A DNA stretch of 64,000 bases from Giardia intestinalis. Lineage: Eukaryota. Where the stretch lies: assembly GCA_000002435.2 (NCBI GenBank), contig CM018792.1. One strand, written 5' to 3'. Shown in pieces: positions 3,787-60,404 of the stretch. The position numbers and the translations under genes were made by a program. Every line of letters begins with the position of its first letter. Position 1 is the first letter of the stretch. The notes under the pieces are model-generated. The model saw only the letters and a program-made list of their open reading frames with translations, did not search any database and was not told where the DNA came from.

Positions 3787-3787
3787 T

Positions 3788-10610: not shown

Positions 10611-10628
10611 AGGAAAATTAGAAATGCA

Positions 10629-12893
10629 TCACTCATAGAAATCCTTACCAAAATCAATGTTATTTTTATTGCTTGCGATAAGTTGTAATTGACCTCTATC
10701 CTCGTCCTGTTCTCTGGTGCTTTTATCAATAGTTTTCTTTGCAGCCCCGTAGCTGCGAGCCATAACCTTTCGTATTGTGGCCTTCTTGATTGGCTCCAGA
10801 GCTCTTTCCCGAGCGCGGGCTATCTTATCTGCATGAATCACTGCCAATTCCTCTTGACGCTTGCGGTGTCTCTCCTTGCGCCTTTCTTTCTCACGTGCTT
10901 TTTCAAATAAAATGTGGTACTTCTCTGGCAGCTTTCTAACGAGTGCGGAGGAATGCTGCAAAAGCCTTTCTATCTTACTCAGCATGTTCAGTGGTGTGAC
11001 AGAGAGCGCGTCGCTGTCTGACGTCTTTGTACAGTGGATGTATGCCTGTCTGATGGCGTCCTCAAGAAGGGACACCAGATGTGTATTGTGGTCAAGGGTC
11101 GCTTCTACATACGAAGCTTCACCCTCCACCTCCTCTGCATCTGTCCGCTGGGCCAGCGTTTGAAGGTTTCCAGTTTGCATTAATAATTGGCGCATCTCTT
11201 CCTCCCTTTCTCTATATTCATTAATACACCTATCTATGAAAGCCTCCTGGCTCGTCTCTACTGTCTGCAAATGCTCCAGCAAGAAGAAGTTGGTATTCTC
11301 AATCGATCTGAGCGACTCGACAAACTCGTTGGTGTCCAGAAAAGGTATCTTATTCTCCTCATTCACGAAAAGACCTACGTTTGTACTGTAGTAATCACTG
11401 AGGCCTGGCTCTGACACCGGGATGTGGGAGTACTCCTCTATGCTGATCTGCGTGGCGCGAACAAGATGACGCATCGTGAGACCAAGCTGCTTGAGGTTAT
11501 TTTTCATAAGCACTGATCCGTCTGTGGACACAGCACCAGCGCCTATCTGCGACTCTTGAATAACTGGCCCTGACTCCGCAAACACATTGGGTGCCATACG
11601 CATGATGTACTGCTTGTCCTCCTGTGAAGATATGGTCATGTAGTTGCAGTAGTTTGTGCAGGGCTCTGGGCACCGGCCACTGGGTATTGTATAAAATTCC
11701 AGAATTTCGCTCAGCTTCTTCAGTACAATGGTTCCAGGCATCTCCTCTAGGTTCTTACTCGGATCTATTCTGTCGTTTGTATTAATTGTACTGGCGAGCA
11801 CCTCCGTACTCTCTGTAAGGATCTTGTCATAGTAGGTCCTGCCACTCTGAGCTCCAGCATCATTCATAGTAATTAGATTGTACGGTGTTATGGCGCCAGT
11901 CTGCACAATTGTTGAGTTCAGCGGAAAGCAGAAGCACGTGAGGCAGAGTCCGTGACAGTGTCCATACTTCTCCAAACAGAAGGCTATGGCCATACGTTGA
12001 ACAGTATGTCGCTCTCGTCGCCCTACGAGTAGCTCTCTATCTTTAATGGAAATGAGTTGGTCCAAGAAAAGCCTATACCTATGTAGCTGACGAATGGACA
12101 GCTCGTGCTTGGTTATCTCTGACTTCAAAGCGAGTATTTGGCTACTGGTGTTACGAATCATTTCTTGTCTCTGTGTTCGGGCCTTAACAGCCTTCTCAGA
12201 CTCCGATATTGTCTTCACAGTCCCCAGATCGCTGTGGCGAATGAACTTATCGAACTTCGAGACCTCCACATCGAGCTTTTTCACTTCTGCCTTGAGATTG
12301 TCTTCCTTTGCACGAATTTGGTTATTGATGTTATCTATTTCGCTCTTTTTGGTTTGCAAAGACAGCTCCGCAAGGAAGATGTCTCTTTGCTTGCTCATGT
12401 ACTCGTCCAGCTTTGGCCGAGGGCCCGGGTCCCGGACCAAGTTCTCAAGAAATTCACGGTCCTTTTTCGTCAGATGTGCGTATTTCTCTGAATAGAGAGG
12501 GGAGTAAGCGTCCAAACGATTGAGGACTTCCTTCGGAATCTGGAGCTCTTCCTCTCGTGCCACACGCTGGTTACGGGTCTTTGCAATGGGTGGAAGAGAC
12601 GTTGTGCCCTTGCCTGTCTGTGCTTTTGATCCTCTACCGCTGATGTTGCTGGTTGCTGTGGATGAATGTCCTGAAGAGGAGGCTGATCCCTTGCTTCTAG
12701 ACTCTGTCAGGCCAAGATTCCTGTTCCTGGAGGCGTATTCGCTAGTTCGCATATGGATGGGAATTTTCTTCAGTAACGCGGCCTGCTCGGCTTTCTCACG
12801 TTGATCGTCCGCTCTTACTTTATAGATGTCAAAGTCGCTATTCAGTCGAAACGGATTGGTCTCCATTTTATCGTAGTACTCATCTTCGAGCAT
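10629..12893 (-). CDS. Coiled-coil protein, hypothetical, possibly associated with flagella or the cytoskeleton
   Basis: 754-aa ORF with a verified ATG. Alternating coiled-coil and globular segments. No catalytic motifs. Confidence 0.45.
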   Translation of the reverse strand: MLEDEYYDKMETNPFRLNSDFDIYKVRADDQREKAEQAALLKKIPIHMRTSEYASRNRNLGLTESRSKGSASSSGHSSTATSNISGRGSKAQTGKGTTSLPPIAKTRNQRVAREEELQIPKEVLNRLDAYSPLYSEKYAHLTKKDREFLENLVRDPGPRPKLDEYMSKQRDIFLAELSLQTKKSEIDNINNQIRAKEDNLKAEVKKLDVEVSKFDKFIRHSDLGTVKTISESEKAVKARTQRQEMIRNTSSQILALKSEITKHELSIRQLHRYRLFLDQLISIKDRELLVGRRERHTVQRMAIAFCLEKYGHCHGLCLTCFCFPLNSTIVQTGAITPYNLITMNDAGAQSGRTYYDKILTESTEVLASTINTNDRIDPSKNLEEMPGTIVLKKLSEILEFYTIPSGRCPEPCTNYCNYMTISSQEDKQYIMRMAPNVFAESGPVIQESQIGAGAVSTDGSVLMKNNLKQLGLTMRHLVRATQISIEEYSHIPVSEPGLSDYYSTNVGLFVNEENKIPFLDTNEFVESLRSIENTNFFLLEHLQTVETSQEAFIDRCINEYREREEEMRQLLMQTGNLQTLAQRTDAEEVEGEASYVEATLDHNTHLVSLLEDAIRQAYIHCTKTSDSDALSVTPLNMLSKIERLLQHSSALVRKLPEKYHILFEKAREKERRKERHRKRQEELAVIHADKIARARERALEPIKKATIRKVMARSYGAAKKTIDKSTREQDEDRGQLQLIASNKNNIDFGKDFYE

Positions 12894-36822: not shown

Positions 36823-38283
36823 ATGTCCAGCAATATCTACACAGCGCTTATGGAAGCCGCTCGAAAGGGCGACATGATCGCCTTGCGTCAAAATTTAAGA
36901 CAGCAGGCCAGGTTGAAGGACAACTTGGGCGTTACTGCGCTGATGTATGCAGCACAGGCGGGACGCTATGAAGCCGTTTCGCTCTTAGCTGAGTATGAGG
37001 CTGGGATGCAAGATTGGCGTGGGAAGACTGCTCTTATAACTGCTATTCAGAACGGGCACGCAGAGGTTGCCCGCATTCTGGTTCCCTACGAAACCGGACT
37101 GCGCGATACGGATGGCGCAACTGCTCTCATGAGCGCCGCCAGTATGGGGTTCAGTAGTCTCATTCAGGAGCTCCTGGAGAAAGAGGTAAAATGCGTAGAC
37201 GACAACGGAAAGACGGCCCTCATGTATGCCGCTGAATCAAACCAGGTTGATGCCGTCAGGATCCTTCTCAAGCACGAAGCAGGGATTCGGGACTCTAGTG
37301 GTCAGACCGCAATGATGTACGCTACCGTCAGCGGCAATATATCAGTCATTGAGCTTCTTTTGGGCTATGAAGCAGGGGTCTGCAAGGACAACGGCTGGTC
37401 CTGCCTTATGACCGCGGCTAAGTTGGGCAATTTTGAAGCTGCCGAGCTTCTGGCTCCAAAGGAGGCTTGCTTAGCAAAGCAGAACGGCATGACAGCACTT
37501 ATGGTTGCCGCACAATTCGACCACGAAGACATAGTGCGTCTCTTAATGGCTGCAGAGGGAAATATGGTTCGGAAAGACGGCCTGTCAGCAAGAAACATTG
37601 CTTCTCAGTTTGGAAACCACGACGTTGCAGATCTTCTCGCCAACTCCACCCACCTTTTTCTCCCGCCAAATCCCTCTGTTTCAGCAAAGTCTTCCAGAAA
37701 CGCTAACGGGCCCAGACCAGAAAATGATCCAAGCAAGGCCTTTACCTCCTCGACCCTCATGCCTCCTCAGCGGCATCAGTATCCCCATGCTCCGACAACA
37801 CCAACTACCAGGGGCGTGACTAAGCGGGAAGGCCATCAAGGACCCGGTGGATATAGCACGCCTGCATTAATAGAAAGCAACCATAATAACAGCAGTCATC
37901 CCGATGGCAACAATTCAAAGCTTGTAGAAAGCTACATTCTCTCTGAGGCCTCGCAGTTTGATAACATTACTTTGAACGCAACGCTAATGGATTCGGTTCA
38001 CTCGGGCCACTCTGCTTCCAATAATTCTAAAATACTAAAACTTATAACAGAAATAGATTGTAAAGATTGCGAGATCGACGCATTAAAAAAGCAGGTAACG
38101 CAGCTCCAAAACCAATTGTCCCACAAAGCAGACGGACTAGTGGATATAAAAGCTGACTATGTTTCTCAGGCTAGGCAGCTTCAGAAGATGGCCGAGTACA
38201 TGCTCGAATTTGCCAACGAAATTGAGCCTGGCATTAATTATATGAACTCGGCTACTACGCAGAAGTCTGATGCACTGAAATAG
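36823..38283 (+). CDS. Ankyrin-repeat plus coiled-coil protein, of the Giardia 'protein 21.1' type
   Basis: The track start is a GTG at 36811 and the first ATG is at 36823. There are at least six ankyrin repeats ('TALMYAAQAGRYEAVSLL', 'GKTALITAIQNGHAEVARIL' and others). A C-terminal coiled coil is present. The AGTGAAT polyadenylation motif sits 16 nt after the stop. Confidence 0.7.
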   Translation: MSSNIYTALMEAARKGDMIALRQNLRQQARLKDNLGVTALMYAAQAGRYEAVSLLAEYEAGMQDWRGKTALITAIQNGHAEVARILVPYETGLRDTDGATALMSAASMGFSSLIQELLEKEVKCVDDNGKTALMYAAESNQVDAVRILLKHEAGIRDSSGQTAMMYATVSGNISVIELLLGYEAGVCKDNGWSCLMTAAKLGNFEAAELLAPKEACLAKQNGMTALMVAAQFDHEDIVRLLMAAEGNMVRKDGLSARNIASQFGNHDVADLLANSTHLFLPPNPSVSAKSSRNANGPRPENDPSKAFTSSTLMPPQRHQYPHAPTTPTTRGVTKREGHQGPGGYSTPALIESNHNNSSHPDGNNSKLVESYILSEASQFDNITLNATLMDSVHSGHSASNNSKILKLITEIDCKDCEIDALKKQVTQLQNQLSHKADGLVDIKADYVSQARQLQKMAEYMLEFANEIEPGINYMNSATTQKSDALK

Positions 38284-38298
38284 TCGATAAGCTGTACT

Positions 38299-38305
38299 AG
38301 TGAAT
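38299..38305 (+). promoter_or_regulatory. Putative Giardia polyadenylation signal (AGTGAAT, which matches AGTRAAY) 16 nt after the stop of the ankyrin gene
   Basis: A direct sequence match in the position expected for Giardia 3' ends. Confidence 0.35.
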
Positions 38306-38766
38306 CTAGCATTTACTCCGTTTCAGAAAGTGACCTCATCAGCTGCAGCCCAAAGGCTGTCATCTGGGCCTCCCGAGTAACTGCTGGTCTTACATAGACT
38401 CACTTAGGTATTGCTCAAAGCACACTTCTTACACTCTGAACAGGAAGATATAGGCTGTCCCCAGATCTGCTCTCAAGGTAAAAGACTCACCTGGCTGTTG
38501 TCGGCCAGCTGAACCGTGTTCTTAGGGAATCGAGCAAGATAATCGCTTGCCGAAAAATAATCTGAAGGCTCGTTGATAAGTGAGACCTTCGGATACTCCA
38601 TAGTATCTGTTACTGACCAGAAGGGCGTGTTACATTCATATGTGTCTAGCTGGTGTCGGACGAGATAGTATTGGCAGATAGTCGGTGTCTGTGATTGCCA
38701 TTTATCCACAAGGCGACACTGCTCTTCTAGTCAGTCTATCATCTGCTCCTTGGCCTCCTTCACCGT

Positions 38767-39792
38767 GTGCCTCTGCTCAGACACTCTGAGCTTCCCGACT
38801 TCAGAAATATCATTGGGTATGGAGAGGATAGGACATCGTACATCATCTGCGGCACCCCCGGGATCGTCTCTGCTCTCCTTACGGCAGTCAAGCCGGCCTC
38901 GGGCACAGGTATCGCCTCCCGTGGAGCAACCTCGTTCCTGAAGCTGCGGCACGTGGTGATAGACGAGGCAGACCACATCCTCCTCAACGACAACACGTCC
39001 TTCCTGGCGCTCATCAGGGAGTTCTTCGCTCAACGGAACTCCACGGCCGTCTTCCGCGTGCCTCTCTTCTTCGCCCAGCGACACCGCCTTGGGCTTCCGA
39101 CGGACAGGTTTGTCTTCCTCTCTGCGACCATGAAGTACCGGGCGAGCCTGCTCGAGAACATGGGCCTCCACGGCGGGTGCATGGTGGACTTCGACGAGGG
39201 CCACGCGCGCCTTGCCCTCTCGCCCAACGTCGAACACTTCGTCGTCCAGCTCAAGCGGGTCTACTCCGAGATAGACATCACATACCTGGTCTTCAGGTTC
39301 CTCTGCAGCCCCGCCGGGTCCATCACCAACTCGAGGACGACCCTCCTGCCCTGCATCGTCTTCGTCAACTCCAGGCACACCGCGCAGCGCATCGCTCACC
39401 TGCTGTTCCTGATGATGATCAAGGTTTACAAAGAGCTCTGGTACAGGATAACGCTGGTGGCCCAGGGGCACGTCTTCCGGAGGCCGAACTTCGAGTCTGT
39501 CCCGGCCATCTCCAACGAGTCCCTCGAGGAACACCCTGCAACGATCGTCTTGGCAACTGATAACTTCGCCCGTGGGCTCGACCTTCCTGCGGTTCGCTCG
39601 GTGGTCAACTTCGATCCGAGCCGGGTCGTCTCCATAGACGAGAAGAGCCTCTGCGACTACCGGAGCACAGAGGGACCGCGGCTGTCCGACTTCTCCGTCG
39701 GGGACAGCGACGTGCTGGAGATCTCACGGAGGTTCAGCGAGAACACGGACATCTACCTGACCACCCTCTACGACGGGGAGTTCGGGCGCTAG
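38767..39792 (+). pseudogene. DEAD-box RNA-helicase-like ORF that lacks the N-terminal Q, Walker A and Ia region, so it is a probable gene fragment or pseudogene
   Basis: Motifs appear in canonical order: 'IICGTPGIV' (Ib), 'VIDEADHIL' (II), 'FLSATM' (III), 'IVFVNSRHTAQRIAHLL' (IV), 'LATDNFARGLDLP' (V) and a degenerate VI 'YRSTEGPR'. The frame is closed by TAG at 38728-38730, only 13 codons upstream. The track 'start' is a GTG and there is no AxTGSGKT motif. Confidence 0.45.
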
Positions 39793-39795
39793 GCG

Positions 39796-41706
39796 CTACA
39801 CGCCCTTGTGCGGAAGGTTCAGGTTGAGCGGGCTGTGGAAGATGTACTCCGGCGCGCAGAAGTAGTACTGCATGCAGTACCGGCCGAGGAAGAAGATGAC
39901 GATGGCCAGGGCCCCCACCAGGACGTAGTTCCACGCGCTGACCTCGAGGGCCTCGCACATCGTGCCCCCGTGCGCGTCGACCGTGTCCAGCCCGTTCACG
40001 CACCGCTTGACCTTGTTGTTGAACGGGGAGGCGCGGACGGCGTCTGCGATGGCGACCTTCTGGGCCTCGTCGGGCGCGGAGAGGAAGAGCGGGTGGACGC
40101 CGTCGCGGTCGGGCCCGTAGAAGCGGGGCATCGTGTACTCGACGGTCAGCTCGTGGCAGAGCGAGTTGGAGCCGCGGCCGATGTAGTAGTAGCCCGAGAC
40201 GCCCCAGCCGGTCCCCCACGAGTTGCGCAGGATCCAGACGGGCCGGCCCTTGTACGCCCCGTAGCCGACGAGCATGACCTGGTGGTTCGTGGTCGCGCGC
40301 ACGCACTTGACGTCGGGGAAGACGCCGCCCTTGTAGAGGTTGAACGTCAGCGCAGAGGCGACGACGGACTCGTAGTCCTTGTCGATCGACGTGTCGACGC
40401 CGGACTCTGTGTGCATGGCCGCCGCGACCCCGACCCCGCGGGCCAGGACGTTCATGACGTTCCGCTCCCACTCGGCGAACTTCCCCTTGTCCATCTCCTC
40501 GATGATGAGCCCCGAGGCCGGCACGCCCTCGTTCCGCAGGATCTGGTAGACGCCGAACTTATTTGGTGTCCCTGAGCCACCATTGACATCATACTCGTAT
40601 TCATCGCTACCTGCAGCCCCAGAATTAGAAGAGCTGCCCTTCTTCTTCATCGGCATGGAGACGAAGGCAGGGTTGAAGTCTCCTATATTGGCGTCCTGAC
40701 ACTTAGCACCATTGTCTGGGGCGGCCTTTTCGGGCGTCGCGTACTCCCTGTAGATGCACTCGGACTCCTTCGCGAGCTTGCTCAGCTTGTTGACGAAGTC
40801 TGCGATGGCGCGGAAGTAGTTTCCCCCGTTGCAGTAGTTCCCGCCGATGAGGTTGTCGAGGAGGAACTGGACGGAGAGGCGCAGGGTGGACGCGCTGTAG
40901 GACTTCCAGTTCTCGGGGATGTCGGTATACTCTTTCTCAGTACGATTTTGAACAGTTATCATTGCAGCGCAGTCATTACTCTTCTGACTGTCATCCTGGC
41001 TCGCAGGGGCCGAGCAGTTGCAGAAGTAGTTCGACGGAAAGGGCTGGGGATCGAGGTACTTCCCCCTCGTGTAGAGGTCTGCGTCGACGAGCATCAGGTT
41101 CTCGAGGACCTCGATGGTCGTGAACTCGTAGCAGGAGCCGCACAGGCCCTGGTCCTTCGCGCGGGTCACGAGGCCCACCTCGCGGAGGTCGACGGAGTGG
41201 GGGAGCGTCCGCTGCCTGTCTTTGACGTTCATGTCCCGCACGTCGACGAGGAAGAAGCTGTCCTGCTTCTTGCTCTTGTCGTCAGCGTTAGCACTCTGTG
41301 AATTAGCTTGAGTGTCTCCCTTCAGGTCCGGCCCCAGCTCGTAGGCATCGACGTTGCAGTTGGTGTACTTATTGGTTTTATTAGTCCAGTTGCACGCATC
41401 TGCAGCTGCGCTCCACTCGCCGCCCCCCAGCGACCGGGGCGGGAGGATGCCGGCGCGCGGGTGGCGGTCCATCCGGGACGTGATCCCGAAGGTGACGTGC
41501 TCGTGGCCCTCCCGGCGGAGCCTGCGGAGGTGCTCGAGGTGCATGCAGAAGTTCCGCTCCGCCTCCAGCCGGTCCCCGGGCGTGTCGTAGGCCTTCCCGT
41601 AGAGGCCGACGAAGCGCTCGAAGGCATGCTCGCACGCCATGTGGATGCTGAACGGGTCCCGCTCGGCCGATGCCGCGCAGAGGAAAGACAAAGTAAGCAG
41701 CAACAT
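39796..41706 (-). CDS. Cathepsin L-like papain-family cysteine protease carrying an I29 propeptide, large insertions and a C-terminal transmembrane helix
   Basis: A signal peptide 'MLLLTLSFLCAASA' is followed by an ERFNIN-like propeptide ('ERNFCMHLEHLRRL...VTFGITSRMD'). The catalytic residues are present: 'KDQGLCGSCYEF' (Gln and Cys), 'NHQVMLVGYG' (His) and 'NSWGTGWGVSGYYYI' (Asn). An insertion of roughly 150-190 aa sits between the Cys and His segments. The C-terminal hydrophobic stretch is 'YVLVGALAIVIFFLG'. The ATG start was verified. Confidence 0.7.
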   Translation of the reverse strand: MLLLTLSFLCAASAERDPFSIHMACEHAFERFVGLYGKAYDTPGDRLEAERNFCMHLEHLRRLRREGHEHVTFGITSRMDRHPRAGILPPRSLGGGEWSAAADACNWTNKTNKYTNCNVDAYELGPDLKGDTQANSQSANADDKSKKQDSFFLVDVRDMNVKDRQRTLPHSVDLREVGLVTRAKDQGLCGSCYEFTTIEVLENLMLVDADLYTRGKYLDPQPFPSNYFCNCSAPASQDDSQKSNDCAAMITVQNRTEKEYTDIPENWKSYSASTLRLSVQFLLDNLIGGNYCNGGNYFRAIADFVNKLSKLAKESECIYREYATPEKAAPDNGAKCQDANIGDFNPAFVSMPMKKKGSSSNSGAAGSDEYEYDVNGGSGTPNKFGVYQILRNEGVPASGLIIEEMDKGKFAEWERNVMNVLARGVGVAAAMHTESGVDTSIDKDYESVVASALTFNLYKGGVFPDVKCVRATTNHQVMLVGYGAYKGRPVWILRNSWGTGWGVSGYYYIGRGSNSLCHELTVEYTMPRFYGPDRDGVHPLFLSAPDEAQKVAIADAVRASPFNNKVKRCVNGLDTVDAHGGTMCEALEVSAWNYVLVGALAIVIFFLGRYCMQYYFCAPEYIFHSPLNLNLPHKGV

Positions 41707-41759
41707 CCGGTCCTTTTTTGGGCCGCGGGTAGGTTAGCCGTGTGCGGGACTTGCACACC

Positions 41760-42524
41760 CTACCGGGTCGCAGACAGGAAGAGGAGCCCGAAGAAGACGG
41801 CCGTGCTCGCCGTCACCCCCGCCACGGCCCCGATGTTCCTCACACGGCAGTCACATAGATCCCTGTGGTAGCCCTCGGCACAGACACAGGCATCCTTGTA
41901 GCACTCCCCGTGTCCTGTGCACACACTCCCAGCCAGACGAGTGTTCAGGTACTTCTTGCTGGCGCACAGCTGGCCATGGGGGACCGCGTCCTCGTCGCAC
42001 TGGCACGCAAGGGCGGCTGTGGCGTTCTGCACACACGTCCTGCCCCTTGCCTTGGGCGTCCAGTTGCAGGCAGCCCCGTTCTTCACGCACTGGGCGTGCA
42101 CGCACGTGCTGTTCAGCATCACAAAGCCGTCCTCACACTTGCACAGGTACTCTCCATCACTGTATAGGCATTCTCCGTGCGGGCACACAAAACCCGTGTC
42201 CGAAACACACCCCGCCGGGGCGCACCCGTGGTCCGGAATGTGCTTGAATGGTGGCACGCACAGACACTGGTGTCTCGCCGTGGAGTGGTCCAGTCGGCAG
42301 AGCAGAGAGCTCGTCAGGTTTGCCACGAAGCCGTCGGTGAGGATCGTGCTATTGTTGTTTCTGATGCTCTTATCAAGCATGTGGGGGTATCCGCAGAGCC
42401 GCTCTCCGACGACGCACTCGGCCGGGTAGCACAGCCCCTCGGGGGGAGTAGTCCTGGCAGGCGCCTGCGGGCTGTCTTGGTTGTCGGCTTCGGCTGCTGC
42501 CCTCGAGAGAACCCTGGGCTGCAA
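41760..42524 (-). CDS. EGF-like high-cysteine membrane protein with a C-terminal transmembrane helix. Its 5' end is uncertain.
   Basis: EGF-like modules are present ('CTGHGECYKDACVCAEGYHRDLCDC', 'CVHAQCVKNGAACNW'). The C-terminal TM is 'AVAGVTASTAVFFGLLFL'. The track start is a TTG and there is no N-terminal signal peptide. An in-frame TAG at 42549-42551 separates it from an upstream same-frame ORF. Confidence 0.45.
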   Translation of the reverse strand: MQPRVLSRAAAEADNQDSPQAPARTTPPEGLCYPAECVVGERLCGYPHMLDKSIRNNNSTILTDGFVANLTSSLLCRLDHSTARHQCLCVPPFKHIPDHGCAPAGCVSDTGFVCPHGECLYSDGEYLCKCEDGFVMLNSTCVHAQCVKNGAACNWTPKARGRTCVQNATAALACQCDEDAVPHGQLCASKKYLNTRLAGSVCTGHGECYKDACVCAEGYHRDLCDCRVRNIGAVAGVTASTAVFFGLLFLSATR

Positions 42525-42996
42525 CGCACTGCCACTTCCCGAGGATTCCTATGCAGTGCCTACTTCCTCGTGGGTAGAGCGGGCATAGAGGCACGGTCTT
42601 GCCGCAGGATCCAGTGGATGCTTGGAGACAGGTGACCCAACGATTTCGTAAAATAGCGCCGCAGAGGCCATGGAGCGAGCAGATGCAATAGGCAATGCGT
42701 TTACTACCGAGACGCCCTGCCCCTGCAGGTGGGCCCAGTGATACAGTGACAGCAATGTACAGGAGTGCACCCCGACCAATCACTCCACAAGAGAGGTGCG
42801 ATCTGAGTCCGGCCCTCACTGGTCCTGTTCCTATGGAAGTCAGAGAGAACTGCGCTATCAGCTGGCCTCCGGTTGGTGTGCTCCTATCTCGTCCTTCTCC
42901 AGTCCAACTGATCAAGAGAGCAAGAGCGGCTGTCTCTCACTGCTCGCGGTCAATGCACAAGTCTGGTGAAAGAGCAGTGGCATACGAACCCGGCTA

Positions 42997-45900
42997 ATGT
43001 TGATAGGATTTCTCCTAGTTTGTGCAACCGTGCTGGCAAAGAACAGCGGGAAGACCGCATGCGTGGCGGCCTCTAACACAGCATGCGCAGCAGCCCTGGA
43101 CACGGCGGGCTGCAAGACCTGCGGCCCCGACGCCCAGACGTGCCTGGACTGCAAGACTCCTGGCGAGAACGTGCAGCTCGATAAAAGAAGCTGCAAGGCC
43201 AACTGCCCGCAGAACTCCTCCCCCAACCAGAACGTCTGCGAGTGCGACCCGGGATTCAGCCTGAACAATGGAAAAGACGCGTGCGAGGCGGTTGCCAACG
43301 TCAACTGCGCAGCAGCCCTGGACACGGCGGGCTGCAAGACCTGCGGCCCCGACGCCCAGACGTGCCTGGACTGCAAGACTCCTGGCGAGAACGTGCAGCT
43401 CGATAAAAGAAGCTGCAAGGCCAACTGCCCGCAGAACTCCTCCCCCAACCAGAACGTCTGCGAGTGCGACCCGGGATTCAGCCTGAACAATGGAAAAGAC
43501 GCGTGCGAGGCGGTTGCCAACGTCAACTGCGCAGCAGCCCTGGACACGGCGGGCTGCAAGACCTGCGGCCCCGACGCCCAGACGTGCCTGGACTGCAAGA
43601 CTCCTGGCGAGAACGTGCAGCTCGATAAAAGAAGCTGCAAGGCCAACTGCCCGCAGAACTCCTCCCCCAACCAGAACGTCTGCGAGTGCGACCCGGGATT
43701 CAGCCTGAACAATGGAAAAGACGCGTGCGAGGCGGTTGCCAACGTCAACTGCGCAGCAGCCCTGGACACGGCGGGCTGCAAGACCTGCGGCCCCGACGCC
43801 CAGACGTGCCTGGACTGCAAGACTCCTGGCGAGAACGTGCAGCTCGATAAAAGAAGCTGCAAGGCCAACTGCCCGCAGAACTCCTCCCCCAACCAGAACG
43901 TCTGCGAGTGCGACCCGGGATTCAGCCTGAACAATGGAAAAGACGCGTGCGAGGCGGTTGCCAACGTCAACTGCGCAGCAGCCCTGGACACGGCGGGCTG
44001 CAAGACCTGCGGCCCCGACGCCCAGACGTGCCTGGACTGCAAGACTCCTGGCGAGAACGTGCAGCTCGATAAAAGAAGCTGCAAGGCCAACTGCCCGCAG
44101 AACTCCTCCCCCAACCAGAACGTCTGCGAGTGCGACCCGGGATTCAGCCTGAACAATGGAAAAGACGCGTGCGAGGCGGTTGCCAACGTCAACTGCGCAG
44201 CAGCCCTGGACACGGCGGGCTGCAAGACCTGCGGCCCCGACGCCCAGACGTGCCTGGACTGCAAGACTCCTGGCGAGAACGTGCAGCTCGATAAAAGAAG
44301 CTGCAAGGCCAACTGCCCGCAGAACTCCTCCCCCAACCAGAACGTCTGCGAGTGCGACCCGGGATTCAGCCTGAACAATGGAAAAGACGCGTGCGAGGCG
44401 GTTGCCAACGTCAACTGCGCAGCAGCCCTGGACACGGCGGGCTGCAAGACCTGCGGCCCCGACGCCCAGACGTGCCTGGACTGCAAGACTCCTGGCGAGA
44501 ACGTGCAGCTCGATAAAAGAAGCTGCAAGGCCAACTGCCCGCAGAACTCCTCCCCCAACCAGAACGTCTGCGAGTGCGACCCGGGATTCAGCCTGAACAA
44601 TGGAAAAGACGCGTGCGAGGCGGTTGCCAACGTCAACTGCGCAGCAGCCCTGGACACGGCGGGCTGCAAGACCTGCGGCCCCGACGCCCAGACGTGCCTG
44701 GACTGCAAGACTCCTGGCGAGAACGTGCAGCTCGATAAAAGAAGCTGCAAGGCCAACTGCCCGCAGAACTCCTCCCCCAACCAGAACGTCTGCGAGTGCG
44801 ACCCGGGATTCAGCCTGAACAATGGAAAAGACGCGTGCGAGGCGGTTGCCAACGTCAACTGCGCAGCAGCCCTGGACACGGCGGGCTGCAAGACCTGCGG
44901 CCCCGACGCCCAGACGTGCCTGGACTGCAAGACTCCTGGCGAGAACGTGCAGCTCGATAAAAGAAGCTGCAAGGCCAACTGCCCGCAGAACTCCTCCCCC
45001 AACCAGAACGTCTGCGAGTGCGACCCGGGATTCAGCCTGAACAATGGAAAAGACGCGTGCGAGGCGGTTGCCAACGTCAACTGCGCAGCAGCCCTGGACA
45101 CGGCGGGCTGCAAGACCTGCGGCCCCGACGCCCAGACGTGCCTGGACTGCAAGACTCCTGGCGAGAACGTGCAGCTCGATAAAAGAAGCTGCAAGGCCAA
45201 CTGCCCGCAGAACTCCTCCCCCAACCAGAACGTCTGCGAGTGCGACCCGGGATTCAGCCTGAACAATGGAAAAGACGCGTGCGAGGCGGTTGCCAACGTC
45301 AACTGCGCAGCAGCCCTGGACACGGCGGGCTGCAAGACCTGCGGCCCCGACGCCCAGACGTGCCTGGACTGCAAGACTCCTGGCGAGAACGTGCAGCTCG
45401 ATAAAAGAAGCTGCAAGGCCAACTGCCCGCAGAACTCCTCCCCCAACCAGAACGTCTGCGAGTGCGACCCGGGATTCAGCCTGAACAATGGAAAAGACGC
45501 GTGCGAGGCGGTTGCCAACGTCAACTGCGCAGCAGCCCTGGACACGGCGGGCTGCAAGACCTGCGGCCCCGACGCCCAGACGTGCCTGGACTGCAAGACT
45601 CCTGGCGAGAACGTGCAGCTCGATAAAAGAAGCTGCAAGGCCAACTGCCCGCAGAACTCCTCCCCCAACCAGAACGTCTGCGAGTGCGACCCGGGATTCA
45701 GCCTGAACAATGGAAAAGACGCGTGCGAGGCGGTTGCCAACGTCAACTGCGCAGCAGCCCTGGACACGGCGGGCTGCAAGACCTGCGGCCCCGACGCCCA
45801 GACGTGCCTGGACTGCAAGACTCCTGGCGAGAACGTGCAGCTCGATAAAAGAAGCTGCAAGGCCAACTGCCCGCAGAACTCCTCCCCCAACCAGAACGTC

Positions 45901-47805
45901 TGCGAGTGCGACCCGGGATTCAGCCTGAACAATGGAAAAGACGCGTGCGAGGCGGTTGCCAACGTCAACTGCGCAGCAGCCCTGGACACGGCGGGCTGCA
46001 AGACCTGCGGCCCCGACGCCCAGACGTGCCTGGACTGCAAGACTCCTGGCGAGAACGTGCAGCTCGATAAAAGAAGCTGCAAGGCCAACTGCCCGCAGAA
46101 CTCCTCCCCCAACCAGAACGTCTGCGAGTGCGACCCGGGATTCAGCCTGAACAATGGAAAAGACGCGTGCGAGGCGGTTGCCAACGTCAACTGCGCAGCA
46201 GCCCTGGACACGGCGGGCTGCAAGACCTGCGGCCCCGACGCCCAGACGTGCCTGGACTGCAAGACTCCTGGCGAGAACGTGCAGCTCGATAAAAGAAGCT
46301 GCAAGGCCAACTGCCCGCAGAACTCCTCCCCCAACCAGAACGTCTGCGAGTGCGACCCGGGATTCAGCCTGAACAATGGAAAAGACGCGTGCGAGGCGGT
46401 TGCCAACGTCAACTGCGCAGCAGCCCTGGACACGGCGGGCTGCAAGACCTGCGGCCCCGACGCCCAGACGTGCCTGGACTGCAAGACTCCTGGCGAGAAC
46501 GTGCAGCTCGATAAAAGAAGCTGCAAGGCCAACTGCCCGCAGAACTCCTCCCCCAACCAGAACGTCTGCGAGTGCGACCCGGGATTCAGCCTGAACAATG
46601 GAAAAGACGCGTGCGAGGCGGTTGCCAACGTCAACTGCGCAGCAGCCCTGGACACGGCGGGCTGCAAGACCTGCGGCCCCGACGCCCAGACGTGCACGGC
46701 CTGTACAGAGGCTTCCAACAATGTACAGATTGACAAGAAGAGCTGCAAGGCCGACTGCCCGTCGAACTCTGCAGCCAACGGCCAGCACGTCTGCGAGTGC
46801 GCCGTTGGGTACCAGCCGACTCCCGGGCAGAACCAGTGCGAGAAGGCCCCTAACACGCAGTGCAATACTCCCAACTGCAAGACCTGTGACAACCCCAAAA
46901 CAGACAACGAAATCTGCACTGAATGTAATGATGGCAACTACCTCACCCCGACAAAGCAGTGCACGCAGAGCTGCGGAGCAATAGGAAGCTACTACAACGG
47001 AGACAAAGTGTGCGAGCCTTGTGATCCTAGCTGTGCTGGGTGCACCACAAAGGGGCCAGCGAAGTGCACAGCTTGTCCTCCCGGGAAAATGCTAAAATAC
47101 ACCAATGATGATCCTAATCAAGGTGGATCCTGCGTAGATGAGTGCAAAGCAGAGATGGACGGGTGTGCAGAGTGTGGAGCGGTAATCGGCGGTACGAAGT
47201 ACTGTTCAAAATGCAAGGAAGATAAGTGGGCACCTCAGAATGGCGTGTGCGCTAATTCAGTAACAAGGAATTCATTCTGCACGAACGCAGCAGGTGGCGT
47301 ATGCACTCAGTGTGCTGCAGATCATTTTCTTCAAGATGGAGGCTGCTATAAACTCGGTAGACAGCCTGGTGTCCAGATATGTGCAGCGGCGGGTCCCAAT
47401 AGCCTGTGTACTACGTGCGTAAATGGACAGAGACCAGATACCAATACTGGAGCCTGTCCTGTGTGTCCAACAGGTTGTGACACATGTACAGGGACATCCT
47501 CGCGGGCGCCCGAATGCCAATCTTGCCTTCTGGGATACTATTTCGATTCTGATAAAAAGCTGTGTGTGAAATGTACCGAGAATAGTAGTGCTATTCAAGG
47601 TGTTAGCAGCTGTGTGAGCTGTAGTCCTCCATCTAATAATCAAGGATCTGTCGTCTGCTACCTCATAAATGATAGCGGTAGCACAAACAAGAGTAGCAGG
47701 CTCTCCACTGGGGCCATCGCTGGCATCTCCGTTGCTGTGGTCGTTGTTGTAGGAGGGCTTGTTGGCTTCTTGTGTTGGTGGTTCCTCTGCCGCGGGAAGG
47801 CGTAG
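42997..47805 (+). CDS. Variant-specific surface protein (VSP) of 1602 aa, carrying about 16 tandem 74-aa repeats
   Basis: The ATG start was verified and is followed by a signal peptide 'MLIGFLLVCATVLA'. CXXC motifs are frequent. A GGCY motif ('FLQDGGCYKL') is present. The C-terminal TM helix is followed by the invariant tail 'CRGKA'. An AGTAAAC polyadenylation motif sits 21 nt after the stop. Confidence 0.85.
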   Translation: MLIGFLLVCATVLAKNSGKTACVAASNTACAAALDTAGCKTCGPDAQTCLDCKTPGENVQLDKRSCKANCPQNSSPNQNVCECDPGFSLNNGKDACEAVANVNCAAALDTAGCKTCGPDAQTCLDCKTPGENVQLDKRSCKANCPQNSSPNQNVCECDPGFSLNNGKDACEAVANVNCAAALDTAGCKTCGPDAQTCLDCKTPGENVQLDKRSCKANCPQNSSPNQNVCECDPGFSLNNGKDACEAVANVNCAAALDTAGCKTCGPDAQTCLDCKTPGENVQLDKRSCKANCPQNSSPNQNVCECDPGFSLNNGKDACEAVANVNCAAALDTAGCKTCGPDAQTCLDCKTPGENVQLDKRSCKANCPQNSSPNQNVCECDPGFSLNNGKDACEAVANVNCAAALDTAGCKTCGPDAQTCLDCKTPGENVQLDKRSCKANCPQNSSPNQNVCECDPGFSLNNGKDACEAVANVNCAAALDTAGCKTCGPDAQTCLDCKTPGENVQLDKRSCKANCPQNSSPNQNVCECDPGFSLNNGKDACEAVANVNCAAALDTAGCKTCGPDAQTCLDCKTPGENVQLDKRSCKANCPQNSSPNQNVCECDPGFSLNNGKDACEAVANVNCAAALDTAGCKTCGPDAQTCLDCKTPGENVQLDKRSCKANCPQNSSPNQNVCECDPGFSLNNGKDACEAVANVNCAAALDTAGCKTCGPDAQTCLDCKTPGENVQLDKRSCKANCPQNSSPNQNVCECDPGFSLNNGKDACEAVANVNCAAALDTAGCKTCGPDAQTCLDCKTPGENVQLDKRSCKANCPQNSSPNQNVCECDPGFSLNNGKDACEAVANVNCAAALDTAGCKTCGPDAQTCLDCKTPGENVQLDKRSCKANCPQNSSPNQNVCECDPGFSLNNGKDACEAVANVNCAAALDTAGCKTCGPDAQTCLDCKTPGENVQLDKRSCKANCPQNSSPNQNVCECDPGFSLNNGKDACEAVANVNCAAALDTAGCKTCGPDAQTCLDCKTPGENVQLDKRSCKANCPQNSSPNQNVCECDPGFSLNNGKDACEAVANVNCAAALDTAGCKTCGPDAQTCLDCKTPGENVQLDKRSCKANCPQNSSPNQNVCECDPGFSLNNGKDACEAVANVNCAAALDTAGCKTCGPDAQTCLDCKTPGENVQLDKRSCKANCPQNSSPNQNVCECDPGFSLNNGKDACEAVANVNCAAALDTAGCKTCGPDAQTCTACTEASNNVQIDKKSCKADCPSNSAANGQHVCECAVGYQPTPGQNQCEKAPNTQCNTPNCKTCDNPKTDNEICTECNDGNYLTPTKQCTQSCGAIGSYYNGDKVCEPCDPSCAGCTTKGPAKCTACPPGKMLKYTNDDPNQGGSCVDECKAEMDGCAECGAVIGGTKYCSKCKEDKWAPQNGVCANSVTRNSFCTNAAGGVCTQCAADHFLQDGGCYKLGRQPGVQICAAAGPNSLCTTCVNGQRPDTNTGACPVCPTGCDTCTGTSSRAPECQSCLLGYYFDSDKKLCVKCTENSSAIQGVSSCVSCSPPSNNQGSVVCYLINDSGSTNKSSRLSTGAIAGISVAVVVVVGGLVGFLCWWFLCRGKA
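43070..46692 (+). repeat. Tandem array of a 222-bp coding repeat (74 aa) inside the VSP gene, with about 16.3 units
   Basis: All three overlapping reading frames repeat perfectly every 222 nt; for example the alternate-frame 72-aa ORFs at 43268, 43490 ... 46598 are identical. The first unit is slightly divergent ('VAASNTACAAALD...'). The array ends where the protein sequence changes to 'CTACTEASNNVQIDKK'. Confidence 0.85.
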
Positions 47806-47825
47806 ATTTAACTGTACACTTAGGT

Positions 47826-47832
47826 AGTAAAC
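47826..47832 (+). promoter_or_regulatory. Giardia polyadenylation signal AGTAAAC (AGTRAAY) downstream of the VSP gene
   Basis: An exact motif match 21 nt after the TAG at 47803-47805. Confidence 0.45.
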
Positions 47833-48320
47833 GTATTATATCGACGGATCCCGTTAGGGGCTGCCTGAGTGCCATTCCTGACTGCACAGTCTGTGCTCTG
47901 AGACAGCGCCTAAATGAGTCTAGATAAAGCCAGCAGTTACTTCGGTACTCTGGGAGGCCAGTAGGCAATGCGATCAATCACAGCTAACGGGGTCACCTTC
48001 TAGAACAGAACGAGTGGAAGAAGTCAAACTGACGGGTTTTAGTGAGGCACTTTTAAAAATCTTTAGGCTTGGATTTGGTGATAGAACATCCAGGCACAGT
48101 AGAGGAAACAACAGAATATGTAGTCACCTGTTCACTCTAGTTAAGATGGCTTGACTGCGAAGTTTAGTAAGGTGGATGTATTGTACGCATAGAAGGTGCT
48201 ATTAGTGTGTCTAAGAACCAGTCGATAGTAAGGGCGGCGCATTTTTCTCATGTACACGAACACGTGTTAAATCTGCTCCTGAGAACGGCATTTAAAAAGT
48301 ACTTATATTGTCGTCGGTGA

Positions 48321-57013: not shown

Positions 57014-57964
57014 CTATTTACTGAGCGTGTAAAGCAGACGGATAGCTTCGTCGGCCACCTTGGCGGTCTCTTTTTCTTTCACGGTCTTTCGGAGCTCGTC
57101 GCGAACAACCTTTTCAGCCCTTGCTCTGCTCTCTGCATTTTCAATGGCCGTCTTTCTGGCCATGTTCTTTGTTGCCTCGGCAGCTAGAAAGGCGTTCTTA
57201 TGATAGGTTTGGTCAGGGTCATTACTTGGGTTGTTTTCGTCTGATAGAGAGTCACTTAGTACCTGGAAGCCCGGTATTCTCGCTGTACTTTTATTCCTAT
57301 TAGCTAACAGTGGGATGTAATTGTCCTTTGTCACTTCTACAATAGCATACGGTTTATCCTCCTTCGGCTTACTATGCTGATCCTTTTCTAAGGCTATTCT
57401 TCTCTCTAGCTCTCTCGCTCGTGCAATCAGGACCGCCTGGCGCGCACGTATATCTTCTACCTGCCTTGTTTGCAGACGGGTTTTCTCTTTGCGCTCTAAT
57501 ATCTCTGTATCTATTTGCTTCTGAGCTTGCAGTAGCTGCAGAGCACTGTTCCCACGGTCCAGGGCAGACCGCCGACGTTCGTATGTATCCTTCGTTCGTA
57601 ATCTCGCCATACTATGTGCGCGTGCTCGCACCCCAGCAGCCTCTTGGTTTGCATCTGCCGTTCGGAGAAGCTCTTCAATCTCCCGAAGCTCTTGTTGAAT
57701 GCGCTTTTTCTGTTCATACAGGCTTAATTCCTGTATGAATTGGGTCTGCTGTTGTCGGTTCTGAGCCGAGGCCGCCTTAAACCTGCTAAGCATCTCCTTG
57801 GCCCGCTCTTGCTCTACTCGTCTGAGCTCGATGATCCGCCGCTTTCTTGCCTCCTCAATGTGTTTTGTGCGCTCCTGCACTTCGTCTTCAACAGACAAAG
57901 CAGTGAATACAGGCATGCGGCCCCTTGATTTTTTGGACACTTTCAAAAAGGTTGTATTACTCAT
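57014..57964 (-). CDS. Highly charged coiled-coil protein, hypothetical
   Basis: The track start is a TTG at 57985. In-frame ATGs lie at 57962-57964 and 57914-57916. The sequence is rich in R, E, K and Q and helical. Confidence 0.45.
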   Translation of the reverse strand: MSNTTFLKVSKKSRGRMPVFTALSVEDEVQERTKHIEEARKRRIIELRRVEQERAKEMLSRFKAASAQNRQQQTQFIQELSLYEQKKRIQQELREIEELLRTADANQEAAGVRARAHSMARLRTKDTYERRRSALDRGNSALQLLQAQKQIDTEILERKEKTRLQTRQVEDIRARQAVLIARARELERRIALEKDQHSKPKEDKPYAIVEVTKDNYIPLLANRNKSTARIPGFQVLSDSLSDENNPSNDPDQTYHKNAFLAAEATKNMARKTAIENAESRARAEKVVRDELRKTVKEKETAKVADEAIRLLYTLSK

Positions 57965-60404
57965 GCAAAGGCGACTAGGCGCCAAATTGACATGCTTCGT
58001 CGTGCAGAAATATGATTTAGAGAATCAAATCTTTGTTATAACGCTGCAGTCATGCGCCGTGACCAAGCTTCCACAAGACCTTGGAGGCGTAGCTGTTTCG
58101 TCTTTGGGAAATACATTTGCAGTGCATCATTGCATGCTTCTGGAGTCCGCCGGAGCACTATCACGAGATTTGTTGGCCCTTTGCTCCAGCGAAACAGCTC
58201 CTGTGCTCACCCTTTCCATCTTATCTATCTACGCTTCTGCAGAGTCAGACGTGGCAAAGCTCGTCAAATCCGCATCCAGCAAGTGTTATGCGCCTGCTTC
58301 TGGTGACGCGGAGATGCCACTACTCGATTGTTCTTCAAATTCCCCCATCTGGCCAATCGGCCCACTTCTGATCTTTCACCCGCATATTACTCTGTCACCG
58401 ACTAGCCTACCTAGCTTTTCGGCCATGGATTGCATCTTCTCTTTTTTCTCCTTTGCCAAGCCCACTACCTACCCTATGCACCTCGGTACTGTTTTGCACA
58501 ATGTCGTACAGTCAAAATTTGTTACTGAAGCAACAAGAGCCAAAACGAGTGACCAGTTAGCTATGCTCAAGGCGGCATGGATTGAACTGGAGCTAGAACC
58601 AGACGAGTTACCGGGCGTAATATCCGCTTCAAAGATTCCCGCTAGCATGAAAGTACCTTACAGCCCTGCCTCTATGAAAGACAAGATACTGTATGAACTG
58701 TTGAAGAACGAGCCTGTCATCTCACTGCAAAACAATGACTTAGAATTCATAGACGAGCGCGCGGCCATTGACACGGTATCTAAGTTAGCATGCGATGCTG
58801 CTTCAACTCGTGAAGCTTTGCAGGCCAGGCATGTTGAGTATTTTGTAGAGAAGCATATTGCCTCCACTGACTTGGGAATGCAGGGAAAGATTGACCTTTT
58901 CGGATTGCTAAAGTGCGAAGAGACAGGAGAGATTCAGAGGAAGGACATAATAGAATTAAAGACTACTAGCACAAGCGGTGCGAAAAGAGAGGCACACTTT
59001 ATGCAAGCATGCACGTACTTCTACGCCACATGCCTCGAGCAAAAAGCTGCCAGCGACACTCTGCTAGGTTGTGATGTGATTGGTATTAAGCAGGGTAGGT
59101 TTTGTCGCCCGTTTCAGTTATTTGGGACTCAGAAATTTGTTACATGTGCAGAACTAGCCAAGAAACAGCCACACAATCCTCTGTTCTACTTTCTGCAATT
59201 ATACACGGTGTTCAGGGTCACATACTTGCTCCTTCTGGAGCTCTCTGTGTACCTTGTCACTATGGTCAATGCCGAAGAGTGTTGTATAGATTCGCAACAA
59301 TTCTTTGACATACTACGCAAGCACGAACCAAAATATCTCCGCACACAAGCAGATAATGCATCATTCTTGAGATTCCTCTTCACGCCAGGAGGTCTAAAGT
59401 CTACCACCATGACATCTATACGGAAGGAGCTTGTGTCTGCCCTTCTGGGAACATATCACCACATTACTGGCGATTCTCTAACTCCCCTAGCTGTTCTTAG
59501 CCATTTCCACACGGTCAGAGTAGGGAACTGCTACTACTCTTTCGTTCATCTGAAATCAGGCTCTCTAACTGTGACCGATATGTATCGTTTGCGTTTCCTT
59601 GTTACTACACACGTATCCTCCAGCCCGTCACTCGATCAAGCACATTGTGTGGTTTCTAATATACTTATGCGAGTGCTAGCATGCGGCTCTTCCTCACAAA
59701 TGTACAGTCAAATTGCTCTTTTGGAATCCTCCTATGATCTTTCGTCAGTGTACAGCCCACCCGTTTCTGAGGTTGTTGGAGTTTGGGCTGCCTATCCCCT
59801 ACTTCCCAATGGCACTGTGGCCGGCCGCTCTCTATCCATTCTCATGTCGAGTCCTATGCTCCGTCAACTTTCGTTTGAGGAGATTATAGATGCGATCGAT
59901 CAGAAGCTATTGACGCTGGAGCGTTCCGTGCAGCACTGCCCTCTTAAGTTCTTGGAGGATGCTGTTAAAGGCCCATTCTACAATGACTCCATCTTGCTCC
60001 TAGTCAATAAAGAAGACGCACATAAATTGCCAACAGATCTGCTAGCTGTATTCGCTAGACGAGGAATTTGCACTGTCCCTGGTTCAGATTGGCCGGCGAA
60101 GTTTTCTGATGCAGAGCTTGTTAGCGTGATAACCCGACAGATCAGTCCTGCAGATTTATTCAGCAGCGTAACCTCAAAATGCACGGCATTCTCCAACTCA
60201 CTAACAAAGATGGCTGCTGTTGCCCCAATGGATTTACTGGATCTACCTATTCTGCGTCAAAGCTACGGAACGATATATGTATTCATAGACTTTTCTAATT
60301 CACAAGGCACAGATATGCTGAATTACGCCGCAGTGTACAACGATTTCTATGCCGTCCTTGCTACGCTTCCTGAATATAAAAGAGTATTCTTCATATGTTC
60401 TTGA
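57963..60404 (+). CDS. Hypothetical protein containing a PD-(D/E)XK nuclease domain of the RecB/Cas4/Exo5 type. Its start is uncertain.
   Basis: The nuclease motifs lie at about nt 58800-59110: 'GKIDLFGLL' (motif II Asp), 'DIIELKTT' (motif III E-x-K) and 'HFMQACTYFYA' (QxxxY), followed by a Cys cluster. The track start at 57798 lies inside the upstream gene. Candidate ATGs are at 57963 and 58134. Confidence 0.4.
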   Translation: MQRRLGAKLTCFVVQKYDLENQIFVITLQSCAVTKLPQDLGGVAVSSLGNTFAVHHCMLLESAGALSRDLLALCSSETAPVLTLSILSIYASAESDVAKLVKSASSKCYAPASGDAEMPLLDCSSNSPIWPIGPLLIFHPHITLSPTSLPSFSAMDCIFSFFSFAKPTTYPMHLGTVLHNVVQSKFVTEATRAKTSDQLAMLKAAWIELELEPDELPGVISASKIPASMKVPYSPASMKDKILYELLKNEPVISLQNNDLEFIDERAAIDTVSKLACDAASTREALQARHVEYFVEKHIASTDLGMQGKIDLFGLLKCEETGEIQRKDIIELKTTSTSGAKREAHFMQACTYFYATCLEQKAASDTLLGCDVIGIKQGRFCRPFQLFGTQKFVTCAELAKKQPHNPLFYFLQLYTVFRVTYLLLLELSVYLVTMVNAEECCIDSQQFFDILRKHEPKYLRTQADNASFLRFLFTPGGLKSTTMTSIRKELVSALLGTYHHITGDSLTPLAVLSHFHTVRVGNCYYSFVHLKSGSLTVTDMYRLRFLVTTHVSSSPSLDQAHCVVSNILMRVLACGSSSQMYSQIALLESSYDLSSVYSPPVSEVVGVWAAYPLLPNGTVAGRSLSILMSSPMLRQLSFEEIIDAIDQKLLTLERSVQHCPLKFLEDAVKGPFYNDSILLLVNKEDAHKLPTDLLAVFARRGICTVPGSDWPAKFSDAELVSVITRQISPADLFSSVTSKCTAFSNSLTKMAAVAPMDLLDLPILRQSYGTIYVFIDFSNSQGTDMLNYAAVYNDFYAVLATLPEYKRVFFICS

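Follow-up and report, generated by a model that had tools for sequence, protein, structure and literature searches.

A putative nuclease-only derivative of Dna2 in Giardia duodenalis and other diplomonads

Introduction

Which nuclease is encoded by GL50803_15192, a gene of Giardia duodenalis annotated as hypothetical, and what would such an enzyme do in a protist that has no organellar genome? The gene is located on the plus strand (complete coding sequence (CDS) 57963-60404, 813 amino acids (aa) plus stop) of a stretch of 64,000 nucleotides from contig CM018792.1 (assembly GCA_000002435.2), hereafter called the window, and its product carries motifs of the RecB family of PD-(D/E)XK nucleases. 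On the basis of sequence comparisons, this product is probably a highly divergent, diplomonad-specific, nuclease-only derivative of the eukaryotic Dna2, of which it would be the ortholog. The puzzle of a nuclease without an organellar genome to maintain had been raised by an earlier reading made from the DNA letters (the sequence-only reading), and it disappears because Dna2 is chiefly a nuclear enzyme of replication and repair, unlike Exo5 and MGME1, which are mitochondrial.

A published inventory of metamonads (Salas-Leiva et al.; PMC8516963, Supplementary Data 2) lists Dna2 in Carpediemonas membranifera, Kipferlia bialata, Monocercomonoides exilis and Trichomonas vaginalis, whereas no Dna2 entry is given for G. 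intestinalis A or B, G. muris, Spironucleus salmonicida and Trepomonas; in the same inventory, Pif1, Exo1, Fen1 and RPA1 are present in Giardia. The locus tags of the GL50803_15192 family are not mentioned in the searchable literature. What is new here is therefore a candidate Dna2-type nuclease, devoid of helicase motifs and of an iron-sulfur (Fe-S) signature, in a lineage thought to have lost Dna2.

Catalytic motifs and active site of the nuclease domain

The ordered catalytic motifs of the RecB family, namely His, hhhD, ExK and QxxxY, are all present in GL50803_15192 (H179, D311, E331/K333 and Q348/Y352, respectively) and lie in a RecB/Dna2-type PD-(D/E)XK nuclease domain (residues 131-440; 58353-59282, plus strand). 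The last three of them are the motifs GKIDLF, IIELKT and QACTYFY of the sequence-only reading, which were found again, in this order and on the plus strand, at 58884-59024 (within 58800-59110). Conservation was read from an alignment of eight family members, composed of G. duodenalis-clade proteins and of three more distant relatives described below, whose identity to the Giardia protein goes down to 21-26%. Forty of the 813 columns are invariant in this alignment, and 31 of these 40 are located in residues 131-440.

From the N-terminus to the C-terminus, the motifs are distributed as follows. The N-terminal extension of the nuclease domain (58395-58511, plus strand) contains SPTSL (58395-58409) and MHLGTVLHNVVQ (58476-58511; includes M172 and H179), which align with 'ISGTS' and 'QMLIGTILHEVFQ' of mouse Dna2, respectively, and in which S145, P146, T147, L149, M172, G175, H179 and Q183 are invariant. 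Motif II, GKIDLF (58884-58901, plus strand), includes the catalytic D311 (58893-58895) and aligns to Dna2 'GLKGKIDV', with Q307, G308, K309, D311 and G314 invariant. Motif III, IIELKT (58947-58964, plus strand), contains E331-L332-K333, invariant in all eight members, and aligns to Dna2 'LELKTG' (Glu299/Leu300/Lys301). Finally, motif IV (QxxxY), QACTYFY (59004-59024, plus strand), contains Q348 and Y352 and aligns, with the nuclease-only sub-profile, to Dna2 'QVV..'; Q348, Y352 and Y354 are invariant.

The active site of mouse Dna2 is composed of His164, Asp278, Glu299, the carbonyl of Leu300, Lys301 and Gln314; His164 and Asp278 are metal ligands, Gln314 buttresses the catalytic Lys and Met157 is a wedge between bases (PMC4716839). 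In the HMMER alignment, the equivalents of His164, Asp278, Glu299, Leu300, Lys301, Gln314 and Met157 are H179, D311, E331, L332, K333, Q348 and M172, all of which are invariant in the family. Seven out of seven equivalents of the Dna2 active site and wedge (M172, H179, D311, E331, K333, Q348 and Y352) are unchanged across the eight sequences, an outcome with a naive probability of ~7e-10. As judged from these alignments, the nuclease active site is fully intact at the residue level.

Profile matches to Dna2

In Pfam scans, GL50803_15192 was matched by PF08696 (DNA replication factor Dna2), with 23 bits for a cutoff of 22.4, and by PDDEXK_1, with 20 bits (19-20 bits in the family). PF08696 matches all five G. 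duodenalis-clade proteins (best E=2.8e-7) and, among the scores seen, those of the proteins P0001 (23.2 bits) and P0008 (27 bits) exceed the 22.4-bit cutoff; the G. muris protein reaches 12.7 bits, and the Spironucleus protein is matched by generic PD-(D/E)XK models only and not by PF08696.

When the eight-sequence profile was compared with 177,635 distinct PDB sequences (E<=10), the only protein recovered was mouse DNA2 (5EAN, 5EAW, 5EAX; E=5.2e-7), through a collinear alignment that covers Dna2 residues 116-307. The outcome was the same with the nuclease-only sub-profile, which recovered only Dna2. Chains of AddB, Cas4, Exo5, MGME1 and RecB, all present in this PDB sequence library, gave no match to the family profile at E<=10. 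PDB searches with a single sequence or with a five-sequence profile gave no matches, and Dna2 was reached only with the profile that included P0008 and the sequences from G. muris and from Spironucleus. Furthermore, an hhalign comparison with an alignment of vertebrate Dna2 fragments (fragments of <=321 aa, found via a mouse Dna2 segment) gave a probability of 95.9% and E=5.4e-9.

The sequence-only reading had assigned the motifs to the PD-(D/E)XK/RecB superfamily, and this assignment is confirmed by the matches to PF08696, to PDDEXK_1, to the phage family phrog_1706 and to the PDB chains of DNA2, as well as by a predicted RecB-like fold (see below). The lack of a profile match or an unrelated fold, which that reading had named as grounds for refutation, was not observed. 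Its description of a stand-alone RecB-family nuclease was right as to the family, but the protein is not an undifferentiated Cas4/Exo5-like enzyme: Dna2 alone was matched in the PDB, PF08696 is the recurring family, and the protein is predicted to have several domains arranged in the order of Dna2.

Absence of helicase motifs and of a canonical iron-sulfur signature

Unlike Dna2, GL50803_15192 has neither Walker A and B nor any other motif of superfamily 1B (SF1B) helicases. Indeed, the Walker A pattern [AG]xxxxGK[ST], and even any GK[ST], is absent from 8/8 family members, and no helicase family was matched in Pfam scans at E<=10; on this point the sequence-only reading, which had reported no accompanying helicase motifs, was correct. 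The protein is also shorter than Dna2 (813 versus ~1060 aa): the chain ends about where helicase domain 2A would begin and is ~250 aa too short to contain it.

The Fe-S ligands of Dna2 are one N-terminal Cys and a CX2CX5C signature after the nuclease core, whereas CX2CX5C is absent from 8/8 members of the present family, in which the Cys residues are not conserved. The several Cys residues that the sequence-only reading had placed after QxxxY do exist in G. duodenalis (C350, C357, C370, C381, C395, C440 and C441), but they do not form the canonical Fe-S signature and are conserved only within the G. duodenalis clade, not in G. muris, Spironucleus and P0008. Three residues, C157 (58431-58433) and C440-C441 (59280-59285), roughly match in position the Fe-S ligands of Dna2, which are carried by the N- and C-terminal extensions of its nuclease domain. 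They occur in 5/5 G. duodenalis-clade sequences and, because they are absent from the same three distant relatives, a canonical cluster is not a feature of the family. A functional canonical Fe-S cluster was consequently rejected, there being no CX2CX5C and no conservation of the Cys residues.

If the protein derives from Dna2 as proposed, it has lost its canonical four-Cys Fe-S cluster and, from the helicase part, both the ATPase/helicase motifs and all of domain 2A.

Predicted fold and domain architecture

AlphaFold (AF2) models were built from five close sequences and from eight sequences, with a mean predicted local distance difference test (pLDDT) of 30 and 51, respectively. The eight-sequence model has usable pLDDT (~60-83) for residues 10-130, 170-410 and 650-813, and its predicted fold is RecB-like, with a restriction-endonuclease-like core. 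When this model was searched against the PDB with Foldseek, three Dna2 structures came first (E 3.9e-4 to 1e-2, 915-984 aligned columns), followed by RecA-type ATPase/helicase domains (E 0.015-0.5) and then by weak cold-shock OB folds (E 0.6-0.9). Sequence identity in the structure-based alignment with Dna2 is ~17%.

The likeness to Dna2 (mouse, 5EAN; PF08696) extends over several levels: (i) the same His, Asp, Glu-x-Lys and Gln residues and the Met wedge are found in a RecB-type nuclease domain, (ii) the N-terminal extension motif, a long helical insert that separates the His motif from the Asp motif, and a similar offset of the nuclease domain from the N-terminus are shared (query residue 127 aligns with Dna2 residue 116), and (iii) the nuclease is preceded by an N-terminal domain and followed by a middle region and by a predicted RecA-like C-terminal domain, which would correspond to the order in Dna2.

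The N-terminal domain (residues 1-130; 57963-58352, plus strand) is mostly beta in the AF2 model, with strands at residues 11-18, 23-30, 51-55, 83-87, 105-109 and 117-121 (pLDDT ~60-80). It is possibly the counterpart of the Dna2 OB domain, the Foldseek matches to OB folds being weak. The middle region (residues 441-650; 59283-59912, plus strand) stands at the position of the Dna2 stalk and beta-barrel. In both models, at pLDDT below 50, a strand-rich stretch comes after long helices (406-437 and 481-502), and the region's equivalence to the stalk and barrel is conjectural. The C-terminal domain (residues 651-813; 59913-60401, plus strand) is predicted to be an alpha/beta, RecA-like domain without P-loop, and probably represents what is left, in degenerate form, of helicase domain 1A. 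When the C-terminal sub-profile was compared with the PDB, only insignificant matches were obtained, to a nucleoside diphosphate kinase (E 0.09) and to an ABC ATPase (E 0.48), so that the RecA-like assignment comes from the model. A mapping of strands to helicase motifs I, II and III (ILLLV-NKEDAHK at the P-loop, IYVFIDFSNSQ at Walker B) was considered as well; it amounts to topology-guided guesswork and was not used as evidence.

The DNA tunnel of mouse Dna2 continues above the nuclease through the beta-barrel and domain 1A, and domain 2A lies outside it (PMC4716839). By analogy, the retention of a dead 1A-like domain together with the loss of 2A would fit this tunnel layout.

Distribution of the family and selection

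A word-indexed search for homologues returned G. duodenalis-clade proteins only. An exhaustive HMMER scan of 1.84 billion representative proteins with a Giardia profile extended this set by only three, more distant, relatives: GMRT_13691 of Giardia muris (753 aa); SS50377_28179 of Spironucleus salmonicida (589 aa), named in UniRef only as a PD-(D/E)XK endonuclease-like domain-containing protein; and P0008 (894 aa), encoded by a gene at 8001-10685 of locus L003 (SRR31929897) from a gene-dense eukaryote, presumably a diplomonad. Pattern and tblastn scans of viral and prokaryotic genome collections and a search of a viral fold library revealed no close viral or prokaryotic relative; at E<=0.001 the fold library gave no match, and its weaker matches were generic PD-(D/E)XK nucleases and P-loop ATPases only. 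As far as present data go, members of the family occur in diplomonads only, and its distribution matches the reported diplomonad Dna2 gap exactly.

Two side observations concern these lineages. A gene coding for a TOP3-like type IA topoisomerase (3003-5951) is located two genes upstream of P0008 in locus L003, a proximity that may be coincidental. Two further Giardia-like lineages (L002, ERR3333379; and the P0004 contigs) share 59-62% identity with assemblage A in the GL50803_15192 protein; they are represented by read-set assemblies only, and may be Giardia species or assemblages without annotated genomes.

GL50803_15192 evolves fast: its aa identity is 78% for assemblage A versus E and 64% for A versus B, values that we take, from published genome comparisons, to be well below the genome-wide averages; if so, such divergence would account for the failure to recognise the homology to Dna2. 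For the comparison of A with E, the ratio of non-synonymous to synonymous substitution rates (dN/dS) is 0.20 overall, with dS of 0.61 and synonymous sites not saturated. By region, the ratio is 0.18 for residues 1-130, 0.17 for residues 131-440, 0.24 for residues 441-650 and 0.21 for residues 651-813. GL50803_15192 is a real gene, all four regions of which are under purifying selection (omega 0.17-0.24); the middle region, poorly modelled as it is, is constrained since its dN/dS is 0.24.

Alternative explanations

Several observations weigh against a Dna2 origin. The sequence scores with Dna2 are modest (23-32 bits) and concern the nuclease domain only; the protein has neither the SF1B helicase motifs nor the Fe-S cluster ligands, both of which are defining features of Dna2; and the argument from domain order is soft, with a mean pLDDT of 51 and residues 415-651 below 50. 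In addition, phrog_1706, a phage Cas4-like family that matches the members with 26-38 bits (E=3e-9), scores higher than PF08696 in G. muris (37.7 versus 12.7 bits) and in Spironucleus (35.7 bits versus no match), and PADLOC Cas4 models match weakly (14-23 bits). Cas4-like families are reported by these phage and defence libraries because the libraries contain no Dna2 model.

An active nuclease of the RecB/Cas4 family could also have arisen independently of Dna2, for example through an early lateral acquisition of a Cas4/AddB-like gene in diplomonads and its fusion to lineage-specific domains; such an enzyme might serve in defence against mobile elements or in specialised repair. We regard this origin as unlikely. 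Indeed, with one profile and one database, Dna2 is the only PDB match at E<=10, and Cas4, AddB, Exo5 and MGME1 are left unmatched; the NCBIfam Cas4 model (TIGR00372) gives 13.8 bits for a curated cutoff of 65; the H and D motifs are far apart, as they are in Dna2 (132 aa in GL50803_15192 versus 114 in mouse), and the HMMER alignment runs through this interval; the sequence and fold scans described above revealed no prokaryotic or viral relative; the modelled RecA-like domain follows the nuclease, as in Dna2; and Dna2 is otherwise reported missing in diplomonads, whereas it is present in sister lineages.

The protein was also compared with other enzymes of the superfamily. Cas4 (TIGR00372, PADLOC Cas4, phrog_1706; 4IC1, 8D3L) is a single-domain protein of ~200 aa with a four-Cys cluster, found in the context of clustered regularly interspaced short palindromic repeats (CRISPR) or of phages, whereas GL50803_15192 codes for a multi-domain nuclear eukaryotic protein of 813 aa that matches no Cas4 chain of the PDB. 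Membership in Cas4 was rejected on the basis of the NCBIfam score, of this multi-domain length and of the absence of a four-Cys signature. In AddB, AdnAB and RecB, which belong to bacterial end-resection machines and gave no sequence match, the nuclease is C-terminal to helicase-like domains, whereas it is N-terminal here, as in Dna2. MGME1 and Exo5 are small, single-domain enzymes of mitochondrial DNA maintenance that resemble GL50803_15192 at the fold level only; a mitochondrial role of the Exo5/MGME1 type was rejected as well, with no sequence match at E<=10 and no organellar genome in Giardia.

It is far less probable still that the protein derives from Dna2 but has become a pseudo-enzyme, which would bind DNA or serve as a scaffold but would no longer be a nuclease. 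Degeneration of the helicase half is clear, and the fast evolution between assemblages would agree with such a fate, but all metal-binding and catalytic residues are invariant at 21-26% identity and the invariant columns are concentrated in the nuclease domain, a pattern that is produced by selection on catalysis. As for chance motifs in an unrelated protein, each motif is short and frequent when taken singly, but this explanation is already refuted by the significant profile, profile-profile and fold matches and by the invariant catalytic positions.

Proposed function

The derivation from Dna2 being the preferred explanation, the most likely function of GL50803_15192 is that of a Dna2-type endonuclease dependent on a single-stranded DNA (ssDNA) end; the chemistry is backed by the invariant residues, and substrates and partners are proposed from the biology of Dna2. 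The mechanism may be modelled on that of mouse Dna2: a free end of the ssDNA would thread into the nuclease domain, where the catalytic metal would be held by H179, D311, E331 and the carbonyl of L332, K333 buttressed by Q348 would activate the attacking water, and M172 would wedge between bases. The substrates may include the long 5' flaps of Okazaki fragments on the lagging strand, and 5' strands at breaks and stalled forks. The motor for unwinding would be supplied by separate helicases, such as the Giardia Pif1 (GL50803_16747) and others, and the C-terminal RecA-like domain would probably be retained not as an engine, but as a structural or ssDNA-binding wall of the DNA tunnel.

A more specific proposal, put forward tentatively and with clearly less assurance than the Dna2 origin itself, is that the diplomonad Dna2 may have been cut down to a nuclease-only enzyme, with no ATP-driven motor, no Fe-S cluster of the kind that staples the tunnel in canonical Dna2 and AddB, and a dead RecA-like domain kept only as a part of this tunnel.

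Gene model and genomic context

The sequence-only reading had described the protein as an 868-aa product. This length corresponds to a mechanical open reading frame (ORF) at 57798-60404 (plus strand), which opens at an upstream TTG (57798), whereas the start in the annotated GL50803_15192 and in every homologue is the ATG at 57963; the real protein has 813 aa, and residues 330-440 of that reading are its residues 275-385. The CDS of the window codes for a protein 100% identical to the annotated hypothetical protein across 100% of its length. The gene model is thus supported by identity to the annotated protein, by the starts of the homologues, by dN/dS and by gene order, which assemblages B and E and one further Giardia lineage (L002) share. 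Its neighbours are typical Giardia genes: on the opposite strand a coiled-coil protein of 300 aa is encoded, and the others code for an ankyrin/coiled-coil protein and for a kinase that carries ankyrin repeats.

The start of the 868-aa ORF (TTG, 57798) overlaps the head of an ORF on the opposite strand (57014-57985). The ATGs supported by homologues are located at 57963 for the plus-strand gene and at 57916 for the minus-strand gene, whose 300-aa product is called in assemblages B and E. These divergent genes are only ~46 bp apart (57917-57962), and their shared upstream region is therefore very compact.

Elsewhere in the window, positions 38000-48000 form a GC-rich block (GC 0.55-0.63, versus ~0.47 elsewhere). 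It contains a 1602-aa ORF (42997-47805, plus strand) that matches the Giardia variant-specific surface protein family (PF03302, E=8e-80) as well as cysteine-rich EGF-like repeats, and a papain-family protease ORF (39796-41706, minus strand). Long antisense ORFs overlap the surface-protein gene and are probably a by-product of its composition.

Implications

The reported absence of Dna2 contributes to the view that Giardia replicates and repairs its DNA with a stripped-down apparatus. In yeast Dna2, the nuclease is essential and the helicase is not strictly so. Dna2 is reported to be indispensable for the proliferation of cells across species (PMC8069077), and loss of Pif1, which Giardia retains, is reported to rescue the loss of Dna2 (PMC6240037).

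If GL50803_15192 is the missing Dna2, the gap in the inventories would reflect the limits of homology detection for a fast-evolving protein rather than gene loss, and Dna2 would no longer count among the replication and repair genes presumed lost in Giardia and its relatives. The family would then provide a natural minimal Dna2, nuclease-only and free of Fe-S, that is, a natural experiment on which parts of the enzyme are dispensable and which activities are needed. In these mitosome-bearing parasites, the Fe-S assembly pathway, itself reduced, would have one nuclear client fewer. Finally, the protein differs strongly from the host enzyme and may be essential if it is the only Dna2 of the cell, which makes it a conceivable parasite-specific target.

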